NCBI GenBank assembly: GCA_024274855.1
Contig: JAJSAJ010000012.1
Coordinates: 1 to 61,734, forward strand
Direction: 5' to 3'
DNA length: 61,734 bases
Source of the DNA: Planctomycetota bacterium
GTDB lineage: Bacteria > Planctomycetota > Planctomycetia > Pirellulales > Pirellulaceae
The translations under genes and the position numbers were made by a program. The notes beneath the pieces were generated by a model. The model made no database searches. It saw nothing but the letters and a program-made list of their open reading frames with translations, and was not told the origin of the DNA. Positions 3,226 to 55,513 of the stretch are shown piece after piece. The stretch's first letter is position 1, and every line of letters starts with the position of its first letter.

Positions 3226-4860
3226 GTGATCAACCGCCGAGAGTTGTTGGCTTCGTTTCTTGGTGCGGCCGCTTGTGGCATGAGTGGCTGTGGCTCGAGT
3301 GGCCCGCATTGTCCACCAGGACGTTTGGTTGGTGCGGCGGTCGAGCTTGGGCATCGCCTGCGCGAGCGGCCCGTGGTCAATGTGCATGACGATCAGTTGC
3401 AACGTCATGCGATTGTGATTGTCGGCGGCGGCATGGCGGGCCTTGCCGCCGCACGACGGCTGCGTCACAGCGGCATGGATGATTTCGTGGTCATCGAACT
3501 GGAGCAAGACCTCGGAGGAACATCGCGATGCGGACAATCGGCGATTACAGGCTTTCCCTGGGGAGCACACTACGTACCCGCACCTCCGAAGCATTTTTCG
3601 GCACTTGTCAACCTGTTCGAGGAAGTCGGCGCGTTGGAAGGGCGTGATGCGTGGGGCCAACCAATCGTCTCTGAAATCTGCCGATGCCGGTATCCTCAGG
3701 AACGAGTATTCTACCGGGGAACTTGGTACGACGGCCTGTATCTCCGTGCCGGGGCTAGTCAACGGGATCTGGATCAACTGGCACGGTTTCGAAAAGAAAT
3801 TGATCGCTGGATTGCGTGGCGAGACAGCCGGGGACGCAGAGCGTTTGCCATTCCCATGGCGGTCGGGTCGGACGACTCGGAGGTCCGTCGCCTGGACCAG
3901 ATGTCTATGTCCCAATGGATGGACAATCACCGGTTCAACTCAAAGCGTCTGAGATGGTTGGTTCAGTATGCTTGTCGTGATGATTACGGAACGCACCCCG
4001 ACCAAACAAGTGCCTGGGCCGGGCTGTTTTACTTCGCTGCTCGGCCCGCTTCACCCGGTCGCCCATCGCCGGACTACATCACATGGCCGGAAGGCAACGG
4101 ACGTCTGGTTCACCACATGAGCCGACCGATCGCCCGGCAGGTCCAGTGCGGCTGGGCAGTTACGTCGATTCGTCCCGGTAGGGTGCCGGACCGACCGCGG
4201 ATCGAATTGCGTGCGATCAACCACGCGGGGGAAGTACGCGGTTACCTCGCTAAGAAAGTGATCGTGGCAGCCCCGCAATTCCTCGCGGCTTTTCTGCTGG
4301 ATTCGTATCGAGCCGATTCGTCGGCGCCCGCCGGCTCGTTCCAATACGGAGCCTGGGCCGTGGCCAACCTGACGCTATCCGAATTACCGAAGGAACCCGG
4401 GCTGCCGATTGCCTGGGACAACGTACTGTATGAGAGCCCGTCGCTCGGTTATGTCGCAAGCAGTTACCAGCGTGGTCGCGATTTCGGGCCCGCCCTCTTG
4501 ACCTATTACTACGCTTTGTGCGACCGGGGGCCCGGCGTGGCCCGGGAGAGGTTATTGGAAGTCGATCGTGAAGGCTGGGCCGAGATCGCTCTGAGTGACC
4601 TCGAACGACCGCATCCGAGTATTCGCCGACTGGTTCAGTCGGTGGATGTCATGCGGTGGGGTCATGCCATGGTTCGGCCGGCGGTCGGGTTCATTTGGGG
4701 GGGGACTCGCCAGGCCGCCGCACAACCGATCGACGGTATTCACTTTGCCCATAGCGATCTGAGTGGCTTGCCGCTGTTTGAAGAGGCCTTTTACCGAGGC
4801 ACCTTGGCTGCCGAGGCGGTCATGCGAGAATTGGGCCGGACCGTCCAAACCGTCTTGTGA
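3226..4860 (+). CDS. FAD/NAD(P)-binding oxidoreductase, amine-oxidase/desaturase-like, probable Tat-lipoprotein
   Basis: IVIVGGGMAGLAAARRL dinucleotide-binding motif. N-terminus RRELLASFLGAAACGMSGC combines an RR motif with a lipobox-like Cys. GTG start. Confidence 0.7.
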   Translation: MINRRELLASFLGAAACGMSGCGSSGPHCPPGRLVGAAVELGHRLRERPVVNVHDDQLQRHAIVIVGGGMAGLAAARRLRHSGMDDFVVIELEQDLGGTSRCGQSAITGFPWGAHYVPAPPKHFSALVNLFEEVGALEGRDAWGQPIVSEICRCRYPQERVFYRGTWYDGLYLRAGASQRDLDQLARFRKEIDRWIAWRDSRGRRAFAIPMAVGSDDSEVRRLDQMSMSQWMDNHRFNSKRLRWLVQYACRDDYGTHPDQTSAWAGLFYFAARPASPGRPSPDYITWPEGNGRLVHHMSRPIARQVQCGWAVTSIRPGRVPDRPRIELRAINHAGEVRGYLAKKVIVAAPQFLAAFLLDSYRADSSAPAGSFQYGAWAVANLTLSELPKEPGLPIAWDNVLYESPSLGYVASSYQRGRDFGPALLTYYYALCDRGPGVARERLLEVDREGWAEIALSDLERPHPSIRRLVQSVDVMRWGHAMVRPAVGFIWGGTRQAAAQPIDGIHFAHSDLSGLPLFEEAFYRGTLAAEAVMRELGRTVQTVL

Positions 4861-5036
4861 GCATGGCCTGCTCGCGACGCAACCATGTTGCACATATTGG
4901 TCCCGTCCATTGACAACCGGCCACGGATACGAAAAGATGCGTTTGTCTCTGGGGGCTCGCCCGAAGAGCGTTACCCGAATTTGAGCGGGCGCGTCTCCTG
5001 GCGAACCGCGAAAGCGAAAAAACCTCGGTGCGTCCC

Positions 5037-5061
5037 GGCTCAGCAGGAGCTTCGCCCTCCC
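5037..5061 (+). repeat. REP-like 25-mer GGCTCAGCAGGAGCTTCGCCCTCCC (family copy a)
   Basis: Identical to 58071-58095. A degenerate complementary arm may lie at about 4983-5007. Confidence 0.5.
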
Positions 5062-5093
5062 AAGTCAACAACCGCCAACCATTTCCCGGACAG

Positions 5094-5534
5094 ATGCTCG
5101 TGACACAACCACCCGCCAAACACGATTCCGAAGAGGCTGCATGCACCAGTTCAGCGATCGGACGGCATCTGTTGGTTGACATGTATGGAATTGACGCTGC
5201 ATTGCTGGCAGATGGAGCCGAATTGGCCAGAGGGTTGCGTGGCGCATTGGTGTCGGCCGGTTTTCACGTGGTCGGTGACGCGGTGCATGAGTTTCCGGGC
5301 GCGGGCGCGGGGATAACTGCGTTTTTTCTGTTGTCGGAATCCCATGCAGCCATCCATACGTATCCCGAATACGAGTATCTGGCACTCGACATCTTCTCGT
5401 GCGGCAGTTCGAATCCTGAAGAGGTGCTGCTCCAGTTCCGGAGTTTGCTGAATCCCCAATCGATCGAAACGATATGGCAAGGTCGCGGGAATCCCAAGTT
5501 ATTGCAGTTCGGTTCGGAACATGATACAGAATAA
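5094..5534 (+). CDS. speH: S-adenosylmethionine decarboxylase proenzyme (small class-1 pyruvoyl enzyme)
   Basis: FFLLSESHAAIHTYPEYEYLALDIFSCG contains the Glu-Ser self-cleavage site and the conserved core. 5094 is the first in-frame ATG upstream of the conserved GRHLLVD. Confidence 0.8.
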   Translation: MLVTQPPAKHDSEEAACTSSAIGRHLLVDMYGIDAALLADGAELARGLRGALVSAGFHVVGDAVHEFPGAGAGITAFFLLSESHAAIHTYPEYEYLALDIFSCGSSNPEEVLLQFRSLLNPQSIETIWQGRGNPKLLQFGSEHDTE

Positions 5535-5579
5535 AACAATGACGTGCTACATGATCTGTTTTCACCAGGAGACGTTGCG

Positions 5580-6320
5580 ATGCGATTCGGCTTATTGTTC
5601 TTGACGTGGAGTCTGTTGATGGTTTCGACTGACGAGAGTTTTGGAGAGGAAATCAAACCGGGTGAACAGATAGCCTGTTCACTGCAACTCGGTGCCAACG
5701 GAGATTCGCAAAAGGCGGCCACGATTCGATATTGGCTGTTCGTGCCGGCCGATTACGAGAAGCGAACCAATTGGCCGCTGATGCTGTTTTTGCACGGGGC
5801 GGGCGAGCGAGGCCAGGACTTGGAGCAAGTGAAAGCGTGGGGGCCTCCAAAACGCGTTGCGACGGAGAAGAACTTTCCATTTGTCGTGGTATCGCCGCAA
5901 TGTCCCAAAGGTGTCTATTGGCATATTGAGCATCTTGCAAAATTGGTGGATCACATCGCCAATACATGCAAAATCGACAAACGTCACATGGTGGTTACGG
6001 GGTTGAGTATGGGCGGTTTTGGAACGTGGCGAATCATTGCCAGATACCCGAAATTATTCGCCGCGGCCGCCCCGATCTGTGGTGGTGGCGATGTCGAAGA
6101 CGCGCCGAAAATGACACAGATCCCCATTTGGGCGTTTCACGGCGATGCCGACTCAACCGTCCCGGTGCAGCGCACACAGGAGATGGTCGATGCCGTGAAA
6201 CAGGCCGGTGGGGACGTCAAACTGACCATCTATCCGGGCGTGAGCCACAACAGCTGGTCCGCGACATATGCCAATCCCAAGCTGTACACGTGGCTGCTGT
6301 CGCATACGCGCAAACCGTAA
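5580..6320 (+). CDS. Secreted alpha/beta-hydrolase (phospholipase/carboxylesterase or dienelactone-hydrolase-like esterase)
   Basis: Signal peptide MRFGLLFLTWSLLMVS, LFLHGAGERG, nucleophile elbow GLSMGG, FHGDADSTVP. AGGAGA lies 7 nt upstream of the ATG at 5580. Confidence 0.7.
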   Translation: MRFGLLFLTWSLLMVSTDESFGEEIKPGEQIACSLQLGANGDSQKAATIRYWLFVPADYEKRTNWPLMLFLHGAGERGQDLEQVKAWGPPKRVATEKNFPFVVVSPQCPKGVYWHIEHLAKLVDHIANTCKIDKRHMVVTGLSMGGFGTWRIIARYPKLFAAAAPICGGGDVEDAPKMTQIPIWAFHGDADSTVPVQRTQEMVDAVKQAGGDVKLTIYPGVSHNSWSATYANPKLYTWLLSHTRKP

Positions 6321-34583: not shown

Positions 34584-35648
34584 ATGGCTAAAGCAACATA
34601 CAAGAGTGCCGGGGTCGACCTGGACGTTTACCGCGAGTCGATGTCCCGCCTGCCGCAATTGATGCACCGAACGTTTTCGCCTCGGGTTTTGAACCTGGAT
34701 GGCGGGTTTGCCGGTCTTTTTCAGCTCGATTTCGACAATCGGTTGTTTTGCCGCAACTACAGCCAGCCGGTTTTGGTTTCTGGCACGGACGGCGTTGGCA
34801 CGAAGCTAAAAATTGCCCGATTGGCCGATGCCCACAATACGGTCGGCATCGATCTGGTGGCAATGTGCGTCAACGATGTCATTTGCTGTGGTGCCGAGCC
34901 ACTTTTTTTCCTCGATTATGTTGCCATGTCTCACGATGACCCGAATATTTTGGCGCAGGTCGTCGAGGGCGTCAGCAACGGGTGCCTGTTGGCCGGTTGT
35001 GCCCTGTTGGGTGGTGAGACGGCGATCATGCCCGACATGTACGCTGCGGGAGATTATGATCTGGCCGGTTTTTGCGTCGGGGTTGTGGAGCGGCGGCACC
35101 TGATCGATGGAAAGACGATTGTTCCGGATGACGTCGTTTTGGGCGTGGCATCCAATGGTCTACATTCCAACGGATTCAGCCTGGTGCGAAAAGTCGTCTT
35201 CGAGATGAATGGACTGGGCGTGGGGGATTCGGTTGATGAACTTGGCCAAACGGTCGGGAGTGTCTTGATGACTCCAACTCGCATCTACGCGAAAAGCGTG
35301 CACCAAGTCCAGAAATACTACAAGATCAAGAACGTCGTCCATGGTCTAGCCCACATCACGGGTGGGGGCCTGCATGAGAACATCGAGCGGATCGTGCCCC
35401 CGACTGCTGAAGTACGGATTGACAAGGGCAGTTGGGAGATTCCCCCCCTTTTTCCGTGGCTGCAGCGGCTTGGCAACATCGACGAAGACGAGATGTACCG
35501 CGTTTTCAACATGGGCATTGGGCTCGCTTTGATCGTCCGCCCGTTGTACGCCGATACGGTGCAGCGGATTATTCGCGATCAGGGGTTTGGCTGTTGGCCG
35601 ATCGGCCACGTTTCCGAAGGATCGGGGAGCGTCGTTTGGACCGAATAG
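34584..35648 (+). CDS. purM: Phosphoribosylformylglycinamidine cyclo-ligase (AIR synthetase)
   Basis: 354 aa. [30 protein letters not shown] and GGETAIMP motifs. Confidence 0.95.
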
Positions 35649-35718
35649 TTTGCCACGACGGTCGCCGTTCACCTGTACGCCTCCGGTTTTTGTTACAATA
35701 CCAGCGGTCTATTTTCCT

Positions 35719-35855
35719 GTAGCCGTTCACGCCGCTGGGGTCTGACGCAATTTTCGGCGGAGAAAGCGTTTCTTTACGCGAACACATTTTTGTCGCCGAA
35801 AATGGGTCTGACCCCTTGGAAGCGAGCCGGCGGCCTACATTCCGTAAACGGTTAC
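35719..35855 (-). mobile_element. 137-bp palindromic MITE-like element, copy 1, flanked by the 8-bp direct repeat ATTTTCCT
   Basis: Terminal inverted repeats GTAGCCGTTCACG / CGTAAACGGTTAC. Internal long imperfect palindrome. About 97% identical (apart from a 9-nt indel) to the reverse complement of 48125-48252. ATTTTCCT occurs at 35711-35718 and 35856-35863. Confidence 0.75.
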
Positions 35856-35892
35856 ATTTTCCTGCCCACGATTTCCCTCGGAGACCCGCTCC

Positions 35893-38800
35893 ATGACACG
35901 GCCACCTATCAGCGTTCTGCTCGCTTTGTCCAGCCTATTCACGTCCGCCTTCTCGGTAGGTGCAGCCGAGGATACAACGCGTCCGGCAACTGCATCGCCC
36001 CCACGCAATGTGTGCGAGTCACCTCGAGACATTCCGATAGCCTATGCAGCCGACCTGGTCATTGTCGGCGGCAGCACCGGTGCGGTATCGGCCGCGGTGG
36101 CTGCAGCCGAACAAGGTGCCAAAGTGTTCCTTGCGGCACCGTTTCCCTATTTGGGTGAAGACATGACCGCCACGTTGCGGCTTTGGCTGGAACCAGGCGA
36201 GCGGCCGAAGTCTCCATTGGCTCGACGAATCTTTAATGACACGTCACGCGAGGATCCCAATGGAAAGGGACTGGCATTCTCATACGTTTCGGACCGTTCC
36301 GCTTCGTCCCCGCACCCCGACACGACGCCTCCATCGCGATTATCAGACGGCCGTTGGAACCTAGCCACCGATCAGAGTGTCCAATACGATGAGGACGTGA
36401 CGATCACCGCCGATTTGGGAAGCGTCCAAAGCGTTCGAAGCGTGGCGGTCACGTTTTTTCGCCGACGAGCCGGTTCGGATCCCAAAACAGGATTCGAAGT
36501 GGGCCGAGCCACTCTTTGGACCAGCCAGGATAAGAAGACATGGCATCAGGTGGATAAAATCGAGAACGATCTTCCATTCCAAGACGTCTCTCGTCTGTCG
36601 TTAAATGTCGGCACGCAGGCACGGTATATTAGGCTGCTGTTGACGCTTCCCGAAGACTACACACGGATGTTAATCGGCGAGATCACGATTCATGGACCTC
36701 GTCCGCCGGCCAAAGCGGGCAGGTCGGACACTCTTCCGCCACGTCCCATGCACGTCAAGAAAACCCTGGATGATGTCTTAATTCAAGCCGGCGTTCAGTA
36801 CTTGTACAGTTGCTATGCCACGGACCTGCTTTACAACGCGGACGGCGACGTGGCGGGGATCGTGATTGCCAACCGAGCAGGTCGTCAGGCAGTGCTCGCC
36901 AAGACGGTTATTGATGCCACATCGCGAGCGACGATGGCGCGAGTCGCCGGTGCCCGTTTTCGACCTTATCCGAAGGGCAATCACACGTTTCAACGCGTTG
37001 TCATCGGAGGCCATCCTGCCGATAATGAATCGCTGAAAGCTCGGATCCCCGCAGCGCCCTACTCAAGCGTCTATGCGAACCCGGCCGGGGATTCCACCAA
37101 CACGTTCGACATCATCGAATACACGCTTTCATTACCAATGGCCGATGACCGATACGGCTCGTACATGAAGGCCGATCAAATTGCCCGGACAATGACCTAC
37201 GACCCGGATCAACAGTTCACGTCGGATATACTCTTCGAAGTTCCACCAGATCCGATGCACGGACAAGAGACGGCCGACGGGCCCTTTAGAAACGTCGACG
37301 CGTTGCCGTTGGGCGCATTCCGCCCCGAAGGAATCGACCGATTCTGGGTCCTGGGGGGTTGCGCGGACGTTTCACGCCGGCAAGCCGAAGGACTGCTCAG
37401 GCCACTAGCCCTCATCGACCTGGGCGCGCGCATCGGCCAGGCCGCAGCAGCTGCGGTACAATCGATCTCGGAAAGCAAACCAGTCCGACTCAGCGGCGCC
37501 TCATGCAATTCGTCCTCGCGGAAAGTAAATGTGCGCGAGGCACTCAGCGGCGTACGACCCGTGGGAACATACAAGACGATTCACCAGCAGGCGAGAGCTC
37601 TTCCGATTCTGAATACCTGTGACGTGGTCGTCATCGGCGGCGGAACGGGCGGTGGTCCGGCTGGAATTGGTGCCGCACGTCAAGATGCCAAGACACTTGT
37701 CATCGAATATCTTTACGGACTCGGAGGGGTCGGAACGCAAGGTGCCATTTCCAGTTACTACTGGGGAAATAGAATCGGATTTACCGCCACCGTACTTGAC
37801 GGTGCGACGAAATGGCCCATTGAGCCAAAAATGGAATGGTACCGCAAACAACTGCTCGATGCGGGCGGCGAAGTCTGGTTCGGTACGATCGGCTGCGGCG
37901 CGGTCGTCGATGACGACAATCGAGTCATCGGTGCCGTCGTCGCAACACCCTACGGACGCGGTGTCGTTCTTGCCAACACGGTTATCGACGCAACCGGCAA
38001 CTCGGACGTCGCCGCGGCCGCCGGTGCAAACTGTATGTATACCGATGCAACCGAATTCGGCATGCAGGGAACGGGCCTGCCCGGCCGGCAACTCGGGGGC
38101 AGTTACAATAACACCGATTTCACAATTGTTGACGAAACCGACTTGCTCGACATCTGGCGCATGTTTGTCTTCTCAAAGAATAAGTACGCCAACGCTTTCG
38201 ACCACGGCCGGCTGATCGACACTCGGGAACGGCGCCGGATTGTCGGCGGGTTCACGCTGTCGATCCTCGATGAAGTCAACCAACGCACCTACCCGGACAC
38301 CGTGGTTCAAGCCTACAGTAACTTCGACACGCACGGCTATACGATCGATAAGTATTTCCTTTTGGAACACCCCGAGAAAAAGGGAATTCACGTCAACATC
38401 CCGATTCGCGCCATGTTGCCTGACGGGCTGGAGGGAATCATCGTCACTGGCTTGAGTATCAGTGCGCAACGTGATGCGATCCCCCTGATCCGCATGCAGG
38501 CCGATATTCAAAACGGTGGCTACGCAGCCGGTGTCGCTTCGGCAATGGCCGCTCGCCGCAAGATCCCGATCCGCCAAATCTACCTTCGCGAGCTTCAGGA
38601 ACACTTGATCAAGATCGGCAATCTAACACCAAGCGTTCTTGAGGACAAAGACTCGTATCCGTTGTCAGATGCGAAACTCGCCGAAGCGGTCACTAGCCTG
38701 CCCAATGGGATCGGCGCGGCCGTAATCATGACCGAACCCCAACGTTCGATCCCGATGCTCGAAAAGGCCTATGCCGGCGCTTCCGGCGACGCGAAACTCG

Positions 38801-39384
38801 TATATGCCAAGGCCCTCGCCGTACTCGGCCAAGCGACGGGACTCGTGACGCTGCTCGATGCCGTGCAACAGGCCAAACAGTGGGACGCCGGCTGGGACTA
38901 TAAGGGAATGGGCCAATTCGGCAGTGCGCTCAGCCCTCTGGATGAACTGGTCATTTGTCTCGGGCGGGTGGGGAATCCGAAAGCAATTCCCGCGATTCTG
39001 GAGAAGTTGAAACAGCTGGATCGCAAGAGTCCGTTTTCCCACTACCGCGCCGTCGCGCTCGCACTGGAACTGATCGGCGATCCCGAAGCCGCAAAGCCGC
39101 TGGCCGAGGCCCTCGCACGGCCCGGCATCACCGGCCACGTCCAGAATGATCTCGAATCCGCCAAACGGGACGGCACGCCAGGGGGTACGACCGCCGAGCG
39201 CCCACGGCGCAATTCGCTTCGCGAGCTGCTGCTGGCCCGTGCGCTCTATCGGTGCGGCGATTATCAGAATGTCGGCCAGACCATTCTGAAACGCTACACG
39301 CATGACCTGCGAGGCCATCTGGCTCGCCACGCCCAGGCGATACTCGATGCAGGGCACACGGGCCCGAAGGCAGCCGAGAAATAG
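35893..39384 (+). CDS. Large secreted FAD-dependent oxidoreductase-family protein with discoidin-like (F5/8 type C) insert and C-terminal HEAT-like repeats
   Basis: Two FAD-binding motifs (DLVIVGGSTGAVSAAVAAAEQGAKV and DVVVIGGGTGGGPAGIGAARQDAKT), a signal peptide, and C-terminal LGRVGNPKAIPAILEKL repeats. Confidence 0.75.
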   Translation: MTRPPISVLLALSSLFTSAFSVGAAEDTTRPATASPPRNVCESPRDIPIAYAADLVIVGGSTGAVSAAVAAAEQGAKVFLAAPFPYLGEDMTATLRLWLEPGERPKSPLARRIFNDTSREDPNGKGLAFSYVSDRSASSPHPDTTPPSRLSDGRWNLATDQSVQYDEDVTITADLGSVQSVRSVAVTFFRRRAGSDPKTGFEVGRATLWTSQDKKTWHQVDKIENDLPFQDVSRLSLNVGTQARYIRLLLTLPEDYTRMLIGEITIHGPRPPAKAGRSDTLPPRPMHVKKTLDDVLIQAGVQYLYSCYATDLLYNADGDVAGIVIANRAGRQAVLAKTVIDATSRATMARVAGARFRPYPKGNHTFQRVVIGGHPADNESLKARIPAAPYSSVYANPAGDSTNTFDIIEYTLSLPMADDRYGSYMKADQIARTMTYDPDQQFTSDILFEVPPDPMHGQETADGPFRNVDALPLGAFRPEGIDRFWVLGGCADVSRRQAEGLLRPLALIDLGARIGQAAAAAVQSISESKPVRLSGASCNSSSRKVNVREALSGVRPVGTYKTIHQQARALPILNTCDVVVIGGGTGGGPAGIGAARQDAKTLVIEYLYGLGGVGTQGAISSYYWGNRIGFTATVLDGATKWPIEPKMEWYRKQLLDAGGEVWFGTIGCGAVVDDDNRVIGAVVATPYGRGVVLANTVIDATGNSDVAAAAGANCMYTDATEFGMQGTGLPGRQLGGSYNNTDFTIVDETDLLDIWRMFVFSKNKYANAFDHGRLIDTRERRRIVGGFTLSILDEVNQRTYPDTVVQAYSNFDTHGYTIDKYFLLEHPEKKGIHVNIPIRAMLPDGLEGIIVTGLSISAQRDAIPLIRMQADIQNGGYAAGVASAMAARRKIPIRQIYLRELQEHLIKIGNLTPSVLEDKDSYPLSDAKLAEAVTSLPNGIGAAVIMTEPQRSIPMLEKAYAGASGDAKLVYAKALAVLGQATGLVTLLDAVQQAKQWDAGWDYKGMGQFGSALSPLDELVICLGRVGNPKAIPAILEKLKQLDRKSPFSHYRAVALALELIGDPEAAKPLAEALARPGITGHVQNDLESAKRDGTPGGTTAERPRRNSLRELLLARALYRCGDYQNVGQTILKRYTHDLRGHLARHAQAILDAGHTGPKAAEK

Positions 39385-48114: not shown

Positions 48115-48124
48115 ACGATCTGGT

Positions 48125-48252
48125 GTAACCGTTCACGGAATGTAGTTCGCTTCCAAGGGATCAGACCCATTTTCGGCGACAAAATGCGTTCGCGTAAAGA
48201 AACGCTTTCTCCGCCGAAAATTGCGTCAGACCCCAGCGGCGTGAACGGCTAC
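48125..48252 (+). mobile_element. 128-bp palindromic MITE-like element, copy 2, flanked by the 8-bp direct repeat GATCTGGT
   Basis: TIRs GTAACCGTTCACGG / CGTGAACGGCTAC. GATCTGGT occurs at 48117-48124 and 48254-48261, with one extra T at 48253. It is the reverse complement of the copy at 35719-35855. Confidence 0.75.
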
Positions 48253-48786
48253 TGATCTGGTTTTGTCAACAGCATGTTTGACGTGGCCGTTTTGGGGGAG
48301 TGTGGAAGACCGAATCGACTGGTGCTACCCTGTGTCCTGCAATTTGGCGAATTCCAGGTCTTCCGCGAGTCTGGTTCTGCCAGACGGCCAAACCGCGTAT
48401 CAGCCCCCCACTTCACCCCTCCCGCTACCATATTCGACCACATGGTGGCACAACAACCCAACATGCAAGACGTTTAGAAACCGGATTTGGCCGGGGAGGC
48501 GGTCGCCGCGGTCGGATCATGTGCTCACTCACCGCAATCGGAATAATCTCTTCAACTATCCTACCTGCGCGCGCCGATATGTTACGACGAGGCCTTGATC
48601 GTGACGTGGTCCACCACACGTTAGCCCAGCTAACGACCACTGCCTTACGACGCGTGGGGCAGTCGGACAACGCGCGCGTTTGGCCAGCAGCCACACGTGG
48701 TGACGCCCAGTCCACTGTCAATCCCCGCGTCTGCGCGGCTGTCCGCCGCAGGTCAATAACTCGTATCGTGAGAGGCTTTTACGTCG

Positions 48787-50043: not shown

Positions 50044-50077
50044 GTAGCCGTTCACGGCTTTGGGCCGCGAACGTTAC
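50044..50077 (+). repeat. Short hairpin resembling the two MITE termini without the internal part
   Basis: GTAGCCGTTCACGG-ctttggg-CCGCGAACGTTAC. The arms resemble the TIRs of the elements at 35.7 and 48.1 kb. Weak call. Confidence 0.25.
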
Positions 50078-52844: not shown

Positions 52845-54064
52845 CTAGACGCCCGTGTGTTCGGTACGAGTGATGATTTCGTCCTGCAACTCACTGGATA
52901 GGTCACAGAAGTAGTCGCTGTACCCGGCCACTCGGACGATCAATCCACGGTAGGACTCTGGATTCGCCTGGGCCTTTCGAAGGGTTTCGGCCCATCGGAT
53001 CCGTCGGCAAGCAAACCGGCGAGGTTGATATTCGCGAAGTCGGTATACGTACCGCTTTCCGCTGCCGTAACGCCTACCTTCGGGGGCGCCGGATGGTTAT
53101 TGAACTTGATGAAGAACATCTCGAGCGTCTCCTTGGCCGCATCCCGCGTCAAGGTGCCGTTGTTCAGCCCCTTGATGTAAAACGGAAGCAGGTGCTGATC
53201 GAGATGCCCTGGGCTGAACGCATCCCATCCATTCAGTTCAGTGATCACGGCAAGATGGTAGAACCAATAGCTTTGCAATGCCTCGTGGAAATCACGGGGG
53301 GCATGGGCTGGTACGTGACGGCAGACAGAAGCGATTCTGTTCAGTTCAGCTTTTCGAGCGGGGTCTTGTTCATTGGCTGCTTTCCGATCGGCCAACTCGG
53401 CGTGCCGCTCGGCGAATAAAATGATCGCATCGCATGCGATGCCCATTGCCTTCAGTTCTTCGCGTTTGGAATACGATTCGGCGTCACTCAGCAGATCCAA
53501 TGCAGCAATCGAAGCCGCGATATCCTGTTTGAAATCAACGGCCCCTTTTCGGTAGATTTTGTCGTCCAATACTGTGTGCCCGGGCGCTCGCTGTTCCATG
53601 AACTCCGTAAACACGCCTGCCTCGTAGGCACTACACCATTCGGTCGCCATTGAATTCAGGATTTTGTCGCGCATACTCCGACCACGCCAGAATGGGATTA
53701 CCTTTTTCTCGTATTCGCGCAAGCATGCATCGGGGCAGACGTATCGAGTTTTTTCGCGTGTATCGAGGATCTCCAGGTCTTGCAGTGTGTGGCAGGTCAG
53801 TTCCGGATAGGTTGGAACGGCCTTCGGATACGGACCTCGTTCACCAACAATCAATTCATCATCGCCCAGATAGATTGTTTTGTGCTGGCACAGGTGATGA
53901 AACGACTTGGCTCGCAGGACGGGAACCGACAGCCTGTCATGGTTTGAACGGTAGAAATCAGTCAACAGACTAGCCCGCTCGTGCGACAGCGTGGGGACTG
54001 CATCCAAACTTAGGCGTCTCAGTCGATCATTTCTTTCCGTCATGGCGTCGTCCCTTTTCCTCAT
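52845..54064 (-). pseudogene. Glycyl radical enzyme (PFL2/glycerol-dehydratase-like) remnant with a large internal deletion
   Basis: About 355 N-terminal codons are typical of GREs. A +1 frame then encodes [48 protein letters not shown]-stop, which is the glycyl radical motif. The central catalytic barrel is missing. Confidence 0.75.
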
Positions 54065-54196
54065 CTGACATTCTGAAAACTATCCAGGCAGGTGTCCCAT
54101 CGATCGAATAAGGTAGTCGTTCACGGGGGTTTTCGTCAGCCAGCGCGTTAGCACCGGAGTTTTCCTCGATTTCCCACACGCCCGATTTATCATTAG

Positions 54197-54310
54197 TCAT
54201 TTGACATTACTCATTTATCATCGAGAGAGGTAGCGCAGCGGGGTCATACTCTTTCCAGTGACAAATGATAGCTGCCAACTGACAAATCCCAAATGACAAA
54301 TGATAAATGA
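54197..54310. repeat. AT-rich cluster of TGACAAATGA-type short repeats with inverted partners
   Basis: TGACAAAT occurs at 54259, 54280 and 54294. TCATTTGACA at 54197 and TCATTTATCAT at 54211 are reverse complements of this motif and of ATGATAAATGA at 54300. Confidence 0.4.
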
Positions 54311-54551
54311 CCACTGCCCCTCCACGCATTCTCGCCGTGAACGGTTACCGAATAAGTTCGTCCACGAGTGTGTACCGTGGCGGCGCAAGTCCCGTCGATT
54401 CCGGACGTTGCCACGGTGCTTGGGTGTCTTTCCCTGGGGCTGCCCTGTCTGTCCAGCGTTTCGCGATCTGGACGCCGAGCATTCCAGTCGTTCAGCCACC
54501 GACCAGCGTATGGAGTCCCGCGGCGCGGAAGACGGCCAACGCATTGTTGAT

Positions 54552-55513
54552 TTACAACTCGGTAATCCGGTTCGTGCCCCACGCTGTTTGCTCACAAGCC
54601 TCATCGAGTACTTTTTCCGTTCCCAAGACATGATAGGGCAGCAAATTGACTTGTTGGATACTGGGGGTCGAGGCGACGAGTTGAGCAATCGCCGCAAGTT
54701 GCTCGGTCTTCAGATTCACGCCGGGTACCAACGGAACTCGCACCCATATACGGGCATGCATGTCCGCCAATTTGGCCAGGTTGGACAGGATCAGCCGGTT
54801 CGAAACGGCCGTATAGCGTTGATGCTCGACGTCGTCCACGGTCTTGATGTCGTAAAGAAAGAGATCGACCCACGGAGCAACGTTACGTAGTGTTCCCAAG
54901 GCGCATAGCCAGATGTGTCCAGTGCCGTATGAACATCCTCGGCGCGAAGTGCCTTGAGAAGATCGAGTGTGAACTCAGGTTGTGCCAGGGGTTCGCCGCC
55001 CGATAGTGTGACACCGCCTCCCGATTGGTCGAAAAACAATCGGTCTCGAAGAACTTCATCAAGCACTTCGCGGGTCGTAATCTCTTGCCCAATGATCTGT
55101 CTCGCGCCGGCCGGGCAATTGTCCACACAGGTTCCGCAGAGTGTGCAGCAGAAGGGTCCGTCCAGGACCATATCTGTATGACTAGCGTCAAAGACTGTTA
55201 AGTTCTTGGCCAAGTTCCAGTGACCAACGGAAGCGGGCGATGGAGGCCCCGGGCGGTAGCTTGGATTTGGTTGGCGGCCCTGCCGCCCTGGGCTGCGTTC
55301 GGGACAGATCTCGATACACTCGCCGCACTCGAGGCATTGAGCTTCATTCACACGTGGTTCGGCAATCGACGATCGGCTCTCCGGGTTGTGGCACCACGGG
55401 CAGCGCAGCGGACACCCTTTCAGAAACACGGTTGTCCGAATACCGGGTCCATCGTGCAGCGAATATCGCTGGATATTGAAGATCAGGCCCTGGTGGTTTG
55501 GTTCCATAAGCAA
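54552..55513 (-). pseudogene. Glycyl-radical enzyme activating protein (radical SAM), frameshifted
   Basis: CPLRCPWCHNPE radical-SAM cluster motif and ferredoxin-like Cys clusters. ...DTSGYAPWEHYVTLL continues as PWVDLFLYDIKTVDD...LLPYH in another frame, consistent with a 1-nt loss in CTCC(C)G near 54874-54877. Confidence 0.75.

Follow-up and report, generated by a model that had tools for sequence, protein, structure and literature searches.

A 137-bp palindromic element in a Planctomycete contig, probably a miniature inverted-repeat transposable element with the ends of IS66-family insertion sequences

Introduction

Most described families of miniature transposable elements with inverted repeats (MITEs) in bacteria are limited to a genus or species. 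The ends of insertion sequences (ISs) of the IS66 family start with GTAA and yield 8-bp target duplications, and real IS66-type examples were therefore examined. On the Geobacillus kaustophilus plasmid pHTA426, an IS66-like element begins with GTATCTATTCAGCCC, finishes with GGGCTGAATAGTTAC and is flanked by the duplication GACGAGTT; its ends are GTA(T/A)CTATTCAGCCC. Metagenomic homologues of the Geobacillus transposase belong to ISs with the ends GTAACTATTCAGCC or GTAACTGCTCAGCC, which are flanked by 8-bp duplications and carry the stop codon TGA of the transposase inside the right end. ISDge4 from Deinococcus geothermalis, a member of the ISBst12 group, possesses the ends GTGACTACTCAGCA and GTAACTGCTCAGCA and an 8-bp direct repeat (PMC12898284). 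The GTAA start of IS66-family ends is seen in the pHTA426 element, in ISDge4 and in the metagenomic members alike. The subject of the present study is a short palindromic element at positions 35719-35855 of a 61.7-kb contig of a Planctomycetota bacterium (JAJSAJ010000012.1; this whole stretch of DNA is referred to as the window). The element, called copy 1 in the following, lies downstream of purM and is very probably a MITE that carries the ends of IS66-family (ISBst12-like) ISs of approximately 1.55 kb and has been moved in trans by a transposase of that type. Over positions 1-5 (GTA.C) and 9-11 (TCA) its terminus agrees with the ends of the ISBst12 group, and it reads CCG TGA ACGGYTAC in reverse complement.

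Structure and boundaries of copy 1

Copy 1 and its parts are located as follows (strand is given where a feature has one).

35711-35718: left copy of the 8-bp target-site duplication, ATTTTCCT, read in the sequence and reported by the repeat finder
35719-35855: MITE copy 1, 137 bp, non-coding, with a left end of the GTAG type and a right end of the GTAA type
35719-35732, plus strand: terminal inverted repeat GTAGCCGTTCACGc, of the right inverted repeat (IRR) type, a 13/14 match to the IRR of the L090 IS described below
35737-35815: internal imperfect palindrome GGGGTCTGACGCAATTTTCGGCG ... CGCCGAAAATGGGTCTGACCCC, the hairpin core, from the repeat finder and the predicted fold
35842-35855, minus strand: terminal inverted repeat GTAACCGTTtACGG, of the left inverted repeat (IRL) type with one transition, 13/14 against the IRL of the L084, L089, L090 and L077 ISs
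35856-35863: right copy of the 8-bp target-site duplication, ATTTTCCT, read in the sequence and reported by the repeat finder

A preliminary description of this DNA had proposed a MITE-like element with terminal inverted repeats and an exact 8-bp duplication, and this is what is found: ATTTTCCT stands on both sides, and the 13-nt left end GTAGCCGTTCACG at 35719-35731 is complementary at 11 of 13 positions to the right end CGTAAACGGTTAC at 35843-35855, the reverse complement of which is GTAACCGTTTACG. The repeat finder gives a direct repeat of 9 nt, ATTTTCCTG, instead of 8 nt, because the first G of copy 1 is the same as the base that follows the right ATTTTCCT. The long imperfect palindrome that had been seen inside the element has its arms at 35737-35753 and 35799-35815, and its core arms at 35750-35759 and 35794-35803 (ATTTTCGGCG and CGCCGAAAAT) are complementary at all 10 positions. 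No open reading frame (ORF) lies wholly within copy 1, which agrees with the supposed lack of coding capacity. The element is placed between two genes on the same strand, namely purM (Pfam AIRS and AIRS_C), which ends at 35648, and an ORF of 1163 amino acids for a FAD_oxidored protein, which starts at 35893. The spacing of 70 nt after purM had been given correctly, whereas the distance to the FAD-protein gene is 37 nt and not 38 nt, a trivial difference.

A search of sequencing runs returned one matching public DNA metagenome, here called X1, with thin coverage, and no matching RNA run. X1 contains a relative that is 95-99% identical to the window at very low coverage. X1 contigs with other copies of the element leave the window sequence precisely at 35719 and at 35855, which supports both boundaries independently. 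As the junction 35590-35740 is present in X1, the insertion of copy 1 is common to that strain.

The left arm of the inner palindrome (35737-35748) opens with the 12 nt GGGGTCTGACGC, with which the terminal repeat of Tn3 also begins; the 38-mer Tn3 end was verified in at least 5000 plasmids, and the right arm matches the 12 nt at 10 of 12 positions. MITEs of the Tn3 type have inverted repeats of approximately 38 bp and a 5-bp duplication. A nested Tn3-derived inverted-repeat miniature element (TIME) at 35737-35815 was rejected, since only 12 nt of the Tn3 end are present and the flanks CCGCT and TTGGA do not form a 5-bp duplication. The match is probably a coincidence, though an unexplained one.

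Insertion sequences with the same ends

As sources of an 8-bp duplication, the preliminary description had named the IS256, ISL3 and IS66 types, and it had suggested a search for an IS with the ends GTA(A/G)CCGTTCACGG. The ISs that were found with such ends are single-ORF elements of the IS66 family with 8-bp duplications, so that IS66 holds, whereas for IS256 and ISL3 no support was obtained. The search made use of the IS66 motif NN.AERD, which is located 58-68 codons before the stop codon in 117 homologues. Metagenomes were scanned for CCGTTCACGG followed, 151-211 nt inward, by this motif in reverse translation. Seven of the eight hits were IS66-type transposase ORFs of 466-503 amino acids that end at the terminus. 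The IS in L077 is 1524 bp long and has GTAACCGTTCACGG at both ends; its ORF shows the domains DDE_Tnp_IS66 (7.5e-32), zf-IS66 and DUF6444, and the TGA that stops it is part of the right end of the IS (CCG TGA ACGGTTAC). By way of homologues of the L077 transposase, three further ISs were reached, each of them complete and located in a long contig.

L084 IS: 1554 bp, both ends GTAACCGTTCACGG, exact 8-bp duplication CACTGCCT
L090 IS: 1563 bp, IRL GTAACCGTTCACGG (GTAA), IRR GTAGCCGTTCACGG (GTAG), exact 8-bp duplication GGAATCCA
L089 IS: 1553 bp, IRL GTAACCGTTCACGG, IRR with two mismatches, exact 8-bp duplication GGTTTTCG

The transposases of these three show the Pfam domain DDE_Tnp_IS66 in precomputed annotation and gene calls, and the one of L084 shares 89% identity with a Planctomycetaceae protein from a metagenome-assembled genome (MAG), which bears the name IS66 family transposase. 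L084, L089, L090, L077 and L082 contain autonomous ISs with the ends of the MITE; all of them reside on contigs of other organisms, which are of Planctomycete type or come from peat or soil metagenomes. With lengths of 1524-1569 bp the ISs have room for one ORF only, so that their transposase gene stands alone, tnpA and tnpB being absent. The GTAA/GTAG end pair of the L090 IS is also that of all three full MITEs of the window (copies 1, 2 and 4; see below). Since L090 has GTAA as IRL and GTAG as IRR, and copy 1 has GTAG on the left and GTAA on the right, copy 1 is inverted relative to the L090 IS. Position 4 is variable among the ISs (A, G or C, and T in Geobacillus), and the G/A difference between the two MITE ends is therefore probably unimportant.

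It might be argued that another DDE family that makes 8-bp duplications (IS256, ISL3, IS6 or IS1595) has moved the MITE and that the identity with IS66 ends is incidental. The duplication of 8 bp alone cannot tell the families apart, and no transposase of any family stands beside the MITEs in the listed loci of other genomes that are treated below. However, four IS66-family ISs that are independent of each other have ends identical to those of the MITE over 14 of 14 nt, the MITE ends resemble the recognised ends of the ISBst12 group (GTAAC..TTCA), and such ends were seen in no other IS family. We therefore regard such an origin as very improbable and assume in the following that the ends of copy 1 are those of IS66-family elements.

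In the L084 contig, which is of Planctomycete type, a different palindromic repeat is present at 4060-4140, approximately 100 nt downstream of the IS. It consists of GGTCTT / AAGACC units (GGTCTTGGGTCTTAGGTCTTGG...CCAAGACCTAAGACCC) and represents a separate family.

The same termini in other genomes

One genome per GTDB species was scanned for GTAGYCGTTYACG and CGTRAACGGTTAC separated by a gap of 81-141 nt, and this terminus pair was found at 62 loci at least. Further copies, the search for which had been proposed in the preliminary description, are thus present in the window, in X1 and at these loci of other genomes. Approximately half of the loci listed belong to Planctomycetota (Pirellulaceae, Thermoguttaceae, Phycisphaerae and Mariniblastus), the remainder mostly to Desulfobacterota, and single loci are labelled Thermodesulfovibrionales and Nitrospinota; the listed loci span Planctomycetota, Desulfobacterota, Nitrospirota and Nitrospinota. 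Together with the window copies and extra pairs inside the scanned loci, a pooled set of 71 elements was obtained, 68 of them with both flanks.

Among the 68 elements, the flanking duplication is perfect (8/8) in 25, 7/8 in 10 and 6/8 in 5. A duplication of at least 7/8 is hence present in 35 of the 68, while neighbouring control 8-mers reach 4/8 at most, and several apparent failures, e.g. in L062, are really 9-bp duplications. The duplicated sequences are all different, are mildly AT-rich (62%) and display no strong target consensus; as the flanking 8-mers change from copy to copy, they do not belong to some longer repeat that is conserved, as might otherwise have been supposed. Conservation is restricted to the ends, where positions 1-13/14 are conserved at 94-100% (position 14 at 77-80%) with only background beyond, so that the conserved part of the MITE consists of no more than its 13-14-nt ends, GTA(A/G)CCGTTCACGG. 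The interiors of the 71 elements fall into 24 unrelated clusters with 38% to 67% G+C, and the elements are between 73 and 236 bp long. Although 79% of the sequence is taken up by ORFs of at least 150 amino acids, 50 of the 71 elements overlap none of them. Judged from these sequences, the duplications, the conservation of the ends alone and the intergenic bias are properties of a non-autonomous element that is mobilised by a transposase, and they would misfit a conserved RNA or an array of protein-binding sites. The insertion of a non-autonomous element by a transposase, as claimed for copy 1 at the outset, is thus borne out by further copies with duplications of their own and by ISs with the same ends. 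The 14 nt per end are the only stretch that is common to the copies, which makes this stretch a candidate for the minimal substrate, and from the number of unrelated interiors it would seem that MITEs were born repeatedly and independently.

A quite different origin has to be considered at this point, namely that of a REPIN, a head-to-head dimer of GTAG-tagged repetitive extragenic palindromes (REPs) whose movement depends on an IS200/IS605-type tyrosine (HUH) transposase, a RAYT, and not on a DDE enzyme. One end of the element opens with GTAG, by which most REP families are tagged. A very small hairpin, CCGT-TC-ACGG, is present in each terminus, and its TC loop agrees with the 'TY' loop consensus of the GTAG-REPs; the units moreover stand head to head 80-210 bp apart, similar to head-to-head dimers. 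However, IS200/IS605-type transposition is not known to make a target duplication, whereas duplications of 8-9 bp of arbitrary sequence flank most copies. Furthermore, the second end is GTAA, and genes for IS66-family DDE transposases are enclosed by identical ends, with an equal length of the duplication. GTAG repeats have been reported from Planctomycetes (R. baltica), Desulfatibacillum and Geobacter, but the study that describes them mentions no duplication, and the stems of the described GTAG families are 6-13 bp long (5 bp once) as compared to only 4-5 bp (CCGT/ACGG) here (PMC3733652). A REPIN is largely ruled out by the target duplications and the IS66 partners, and we consider it extremely improbable.

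The predicted fold of copy 1 invites a further explanation. The element would form a long and very stable hairpin (RNA -59.6 kcal/mol, z = -4.7; DNA -33.5 kcal/mol, z = -4.4), it is situated between two genes on the same strand, and the family is strongly biased to intergenic sites. This could indicate a host-selected structured element, i.e. a stabilising or terminating hairpin between purM and the FAD-protein gene that is no longer mobile and whose transposon features are fossil. However, a terminator-like T-run and a sigma-70-like promoter consensus were looked for in copy 1 and neither is present, and an Rfam search at gathering and at permissive thresholds gave only hairpin matches at noise level to miRNA precursor families. 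The interiors are unrelated between lineages, so that no structure or sequence is conserved beyond the ends that putatively bind the transposase. Also the near-identity of copies 1 and 2 (see below) points to recent spread, and an intergenic bias is expected anyway from purifying selection against insertions in genes. We thus think that a purely structural role is highly improbable as an explanation of copy 1, and that a MITE with IS66-type ends accounts for it. As the hairpins at gene boundaries are predicted to be very stable, effects on transcript ends or transcript stability are possible, and an influence of the copy 1 hairpin on purM or the FAD-protein gene is speculative.

Several loci contain clusters of nested or abutting copies, such as L019 280-779, where three plus-strand termini are followed by three minus-strand termini, and also L015, L024 and L034; the MITE thus seems to insert frequently into or beside other copies. 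Many MAG contigs stop at or within a copy (L016, L030, L035 and L057), which means that the family breaks short-read assemblies. In L048, the stretch 4449-6050 comprises 1.6 kb without an ORF of at least 150 amino acids and contains two solo termini, one full MITE and an internally recurring segment (translating as ...RVHSRPSAV...); it looks like a repeat-rich intergenic 'graveyard'.

Further copies and remnants in the window

The terminus motif GTARCCGTTYACG with at most one mismatch occurs 7 times in the window as compared to 0.23 expected from shuffles, and chance is therefore no explanation for this count. Besides copy 1, the following features were found.

48125-48252: MITE copy 2, 128 bp, same interior family as copy 1 in opposite orientation, from motif hits and alignment
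54113-54348: MITE copy 4, 236 bp, ends GTAGTCGTTCACGG / GTAACCGTTCACGG, AT-rich interior unrelated to copy 1, from motif hits
50044-50077, plus strand: remnant of approximately 34 bp upstream of mutS, GTAGCCGTTCACGG...CGCGAACGTTAC, left terminus intact, right terminus degenerate, no duplication
35661-35696, plus strand: possible older degenerate remnant GTCGCCGTTCACCT...TTTTTGTTAC just past the purM stop codon, 3 mismatches to the terminus

Copy 2 differs from copy 1 by an internal deletion of 8 bp and a few substitutions and is otherwise near-identical. Its flanks, CGATCTGGT at 48116-48124 and TGATCTGGT at 48253-48261, represent a 9-bp duplication, [C/T]GATCTGGT, in which 8 of 9 positions agree and one is mismatched. 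Copy 4 has the exact 8-bp duplication CGAATAAG at 54105-54112 and 54349-54356, and the match to an X1 contig that contains another member of the copy 4 family stops precisely at 54113. The terminal repeats of copies 2 and 4 are complementary at 12-13 of 13 positions. The remnant at 50044-50077 is also found in the related strain of X1, whereas the identity of 35661-35696 as a remnant is weak and could be a chance match. Both measure approximately 35 bp from terminus to terminus and consist of a left end that is intact or nearly so, a short stretch of bases and a degenerate right end ...GTTAC; neither shows a duplication, and they may stem from internal deletion or be what is left of old copies.

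All window copies are intergenic, and the surrounding genes are ordinary chromosomal ones, such as purM, fliG, mutS, dnaJ, a PTPS gene and a PFL-like gene. The gene boundaries at which copies sit are those after purM and the PTPS gene and those upstream of the PFL-like gene and of mutS. Several intergenic palindromes of the contig are thereby explained as one repeat family. In X1, the unique flank to the left of copy 1 has a word depth of 2 and the MITE interior one of up to approximately 750. This ratio suggests copies on the order of a hundred or more, a figure that is rough because other organisms of the sample may also carry the family.

The copies and the clear remnants are all found in the right-hand 26 kb of the contig (35711-54356), and the region 1-35000 contains only terminus matches with 3 mismatches, at chance level. 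The PFL-like (glycyl-radical enzyme) ORF at 52940-54064 on the minus strand encodes 374 amino acids and covers profile positions 1-351 of 647; it is devoid of the C-terminal half and of the glycine-radical domain, ends approximately 100 nt from the convergent mutS and looks like a truncated gene or pseudogene. An ORF for a radical-SAM activase-like protein is located upstream of it at 54791-55513, with copy 4 in between, 48 nt upstream of the PFL-like start codon. The FAD-protein gene (35893-39384) has an unusual mix of domains, with FAD_oxidored in four stretches plus F5/8 type C (discoidin), and the C-terminal region of the protein gives a sub-threshold match to HEAT_2 (23.9 bits; cut-off 27.7). 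The window has a G+C content of 56%. The proteins closest to its PurM are named from MAGs of Pirellulaceae and Planctomycetales, with a best identity of 76%, so that the organism is a Planctomycete without a close sequenced relative; an exact-protein look-up of the window PurM returned no record.

Proposed mechanism and significance

The transposition of copy 1 can be envisaged as follows. An ISBst12-like IS66 transposase from a full-length copy elsewhere in the genome would bind both MITE ends and would insert the MITE at a target that is cut with a stagger of 8 nt, or occasionally 9 nt; the repair of this stagger would then leave the duplicated ATTTTCCT. We infer for this that the genome of the window contains or once contained such an IS, that its transposase acts in trans, and that it uses either a cut-and-paste or a copy-and-paste mode.

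Several observations weigh against the origin of copy 1 from an IS66-type transposase. Neither the 61.7-kb window nor the 62 MITE loci listed contain an IS66-type transposase, as judged by tblastn with a Geobacillus ISBst12-type query and by Pfam analysis of neighbouring ORFs; likewise, the ORFs next to solo terminus half-sites in the MITE loci listed are all housekeeping genes, and no transposase is among them. A comparison of the MITE interiors with the sampled ISs gave nothing in common beyond 13-20 nt at the ends, and for this reason descent by internal deletion is not claimed here, only shared ends. Approximately one third of the elements from other genomes have no recognisable duplication, which may be due to age, rearrangement or assembly chimeras, and the short metagenome IS contigs L076-L083 lack a clean duplication. 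Finally, no empty-site allele was found in the nearest purM loci or in the thinly covered X1; the former, with 76% protein identity, different genes downstream of purM and no terminus motif, are too distant to serve as an empty-site reference.

MITEs and the IS66 family are both well known, and the most interesting aspect is that a single 14-nt terminus occurs across phyla with many interiors and at high copy number. We tentatively propose that a so far undescribed, pan-phylum superfamily of IS66/ISBst12-type MITEs may exist, which would be defined by GTA(A/G)CCGTTCACGG and would have arisen by many independent births (at least 24 interiors), with hundreds of copies per genome that far outnumber the parent ISs. 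In the literature searched, the coverage of which was partial, no description of an IS66/ISBst12-derived MITE, of a Planctomycete MITE or of the terminus sequence was found, and the only relevant paper was that on GTAG-REPs. If such a superfamily exists, IS66 transposases would be a major and overlooked driver of intergenic repeats in these environmental phyla, and nature would supply, in these elements, a collection of minimal substrates for IS66 transposition, which is poorly understood. Independent of this, the 14-nt signature locates the family and the contig breaks that it causes in MAGs of Planctomycetes and Desulfobacterota, and it connects a family of MITEs with the ISBst12 branch within IS66, on the mechanism of which little work exists.

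Comparison with known systems

The members of the ISBst12 group (the pHTA426 element of the ISGka4 family and ISDge4) resemble the MITE and its matching ISs in ends that start with GTA(A/N)C and have TCA at positions 9-11. The ISBst12 group and the matching ISs are further alike in the 8-bp target duplication, in a length of approximately 1.5-1.6 kb, in the possession of one transposase of approximately 450-500 amino acids with DUF6444, zf-IS66 and DDE_Tnp_IS66, and, in several members, in a transposase stop codon TGA inside the right end. Unlike these ISs, the element of the window measures 137 bp and encodes nothing. Its ends, GTA(A/G)CCGTTCACGG, are identical at 9 of 14 positions to the GTAACT(A/G)(T/C)TCAGCC of the Firmicute, Deinococcus and other metagenomic members, and the transposases of the matching ISs are only distantly related to that of Geobacillus and are absent from its best 120 hits.

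With the GTAG-REP and REPIN elements (Di Nocera et al. 2013, PMC3733652), the family shares GTAG at one end, a stem-loop with a TC loop in each terminus, head-to-head pairs, intergenic sites and an occurrence in Planctomycetes and Deltaproteobacteria. It differs from them in the 8-9-bp duplication, the stem of 4-5 bp, the GTAA at the other end and in a DDE (IS66) instead of a tyrosine transposase. Like the bacterial MITEs Correia/NEMIS, RUP, Nezha and MITEAba12, the elements are short and non-coding, with terminal inverted repeats, a target duplication and many copies, and they are likewise intergenic, form hairpins and have their ends in common with a full-length IS. In contrast to those MITEs, the probable source family is IS66/ISBst12, and one 14-nt terminus recurs in at least four phyla together with interiors of at least 24 unrelated kinds.

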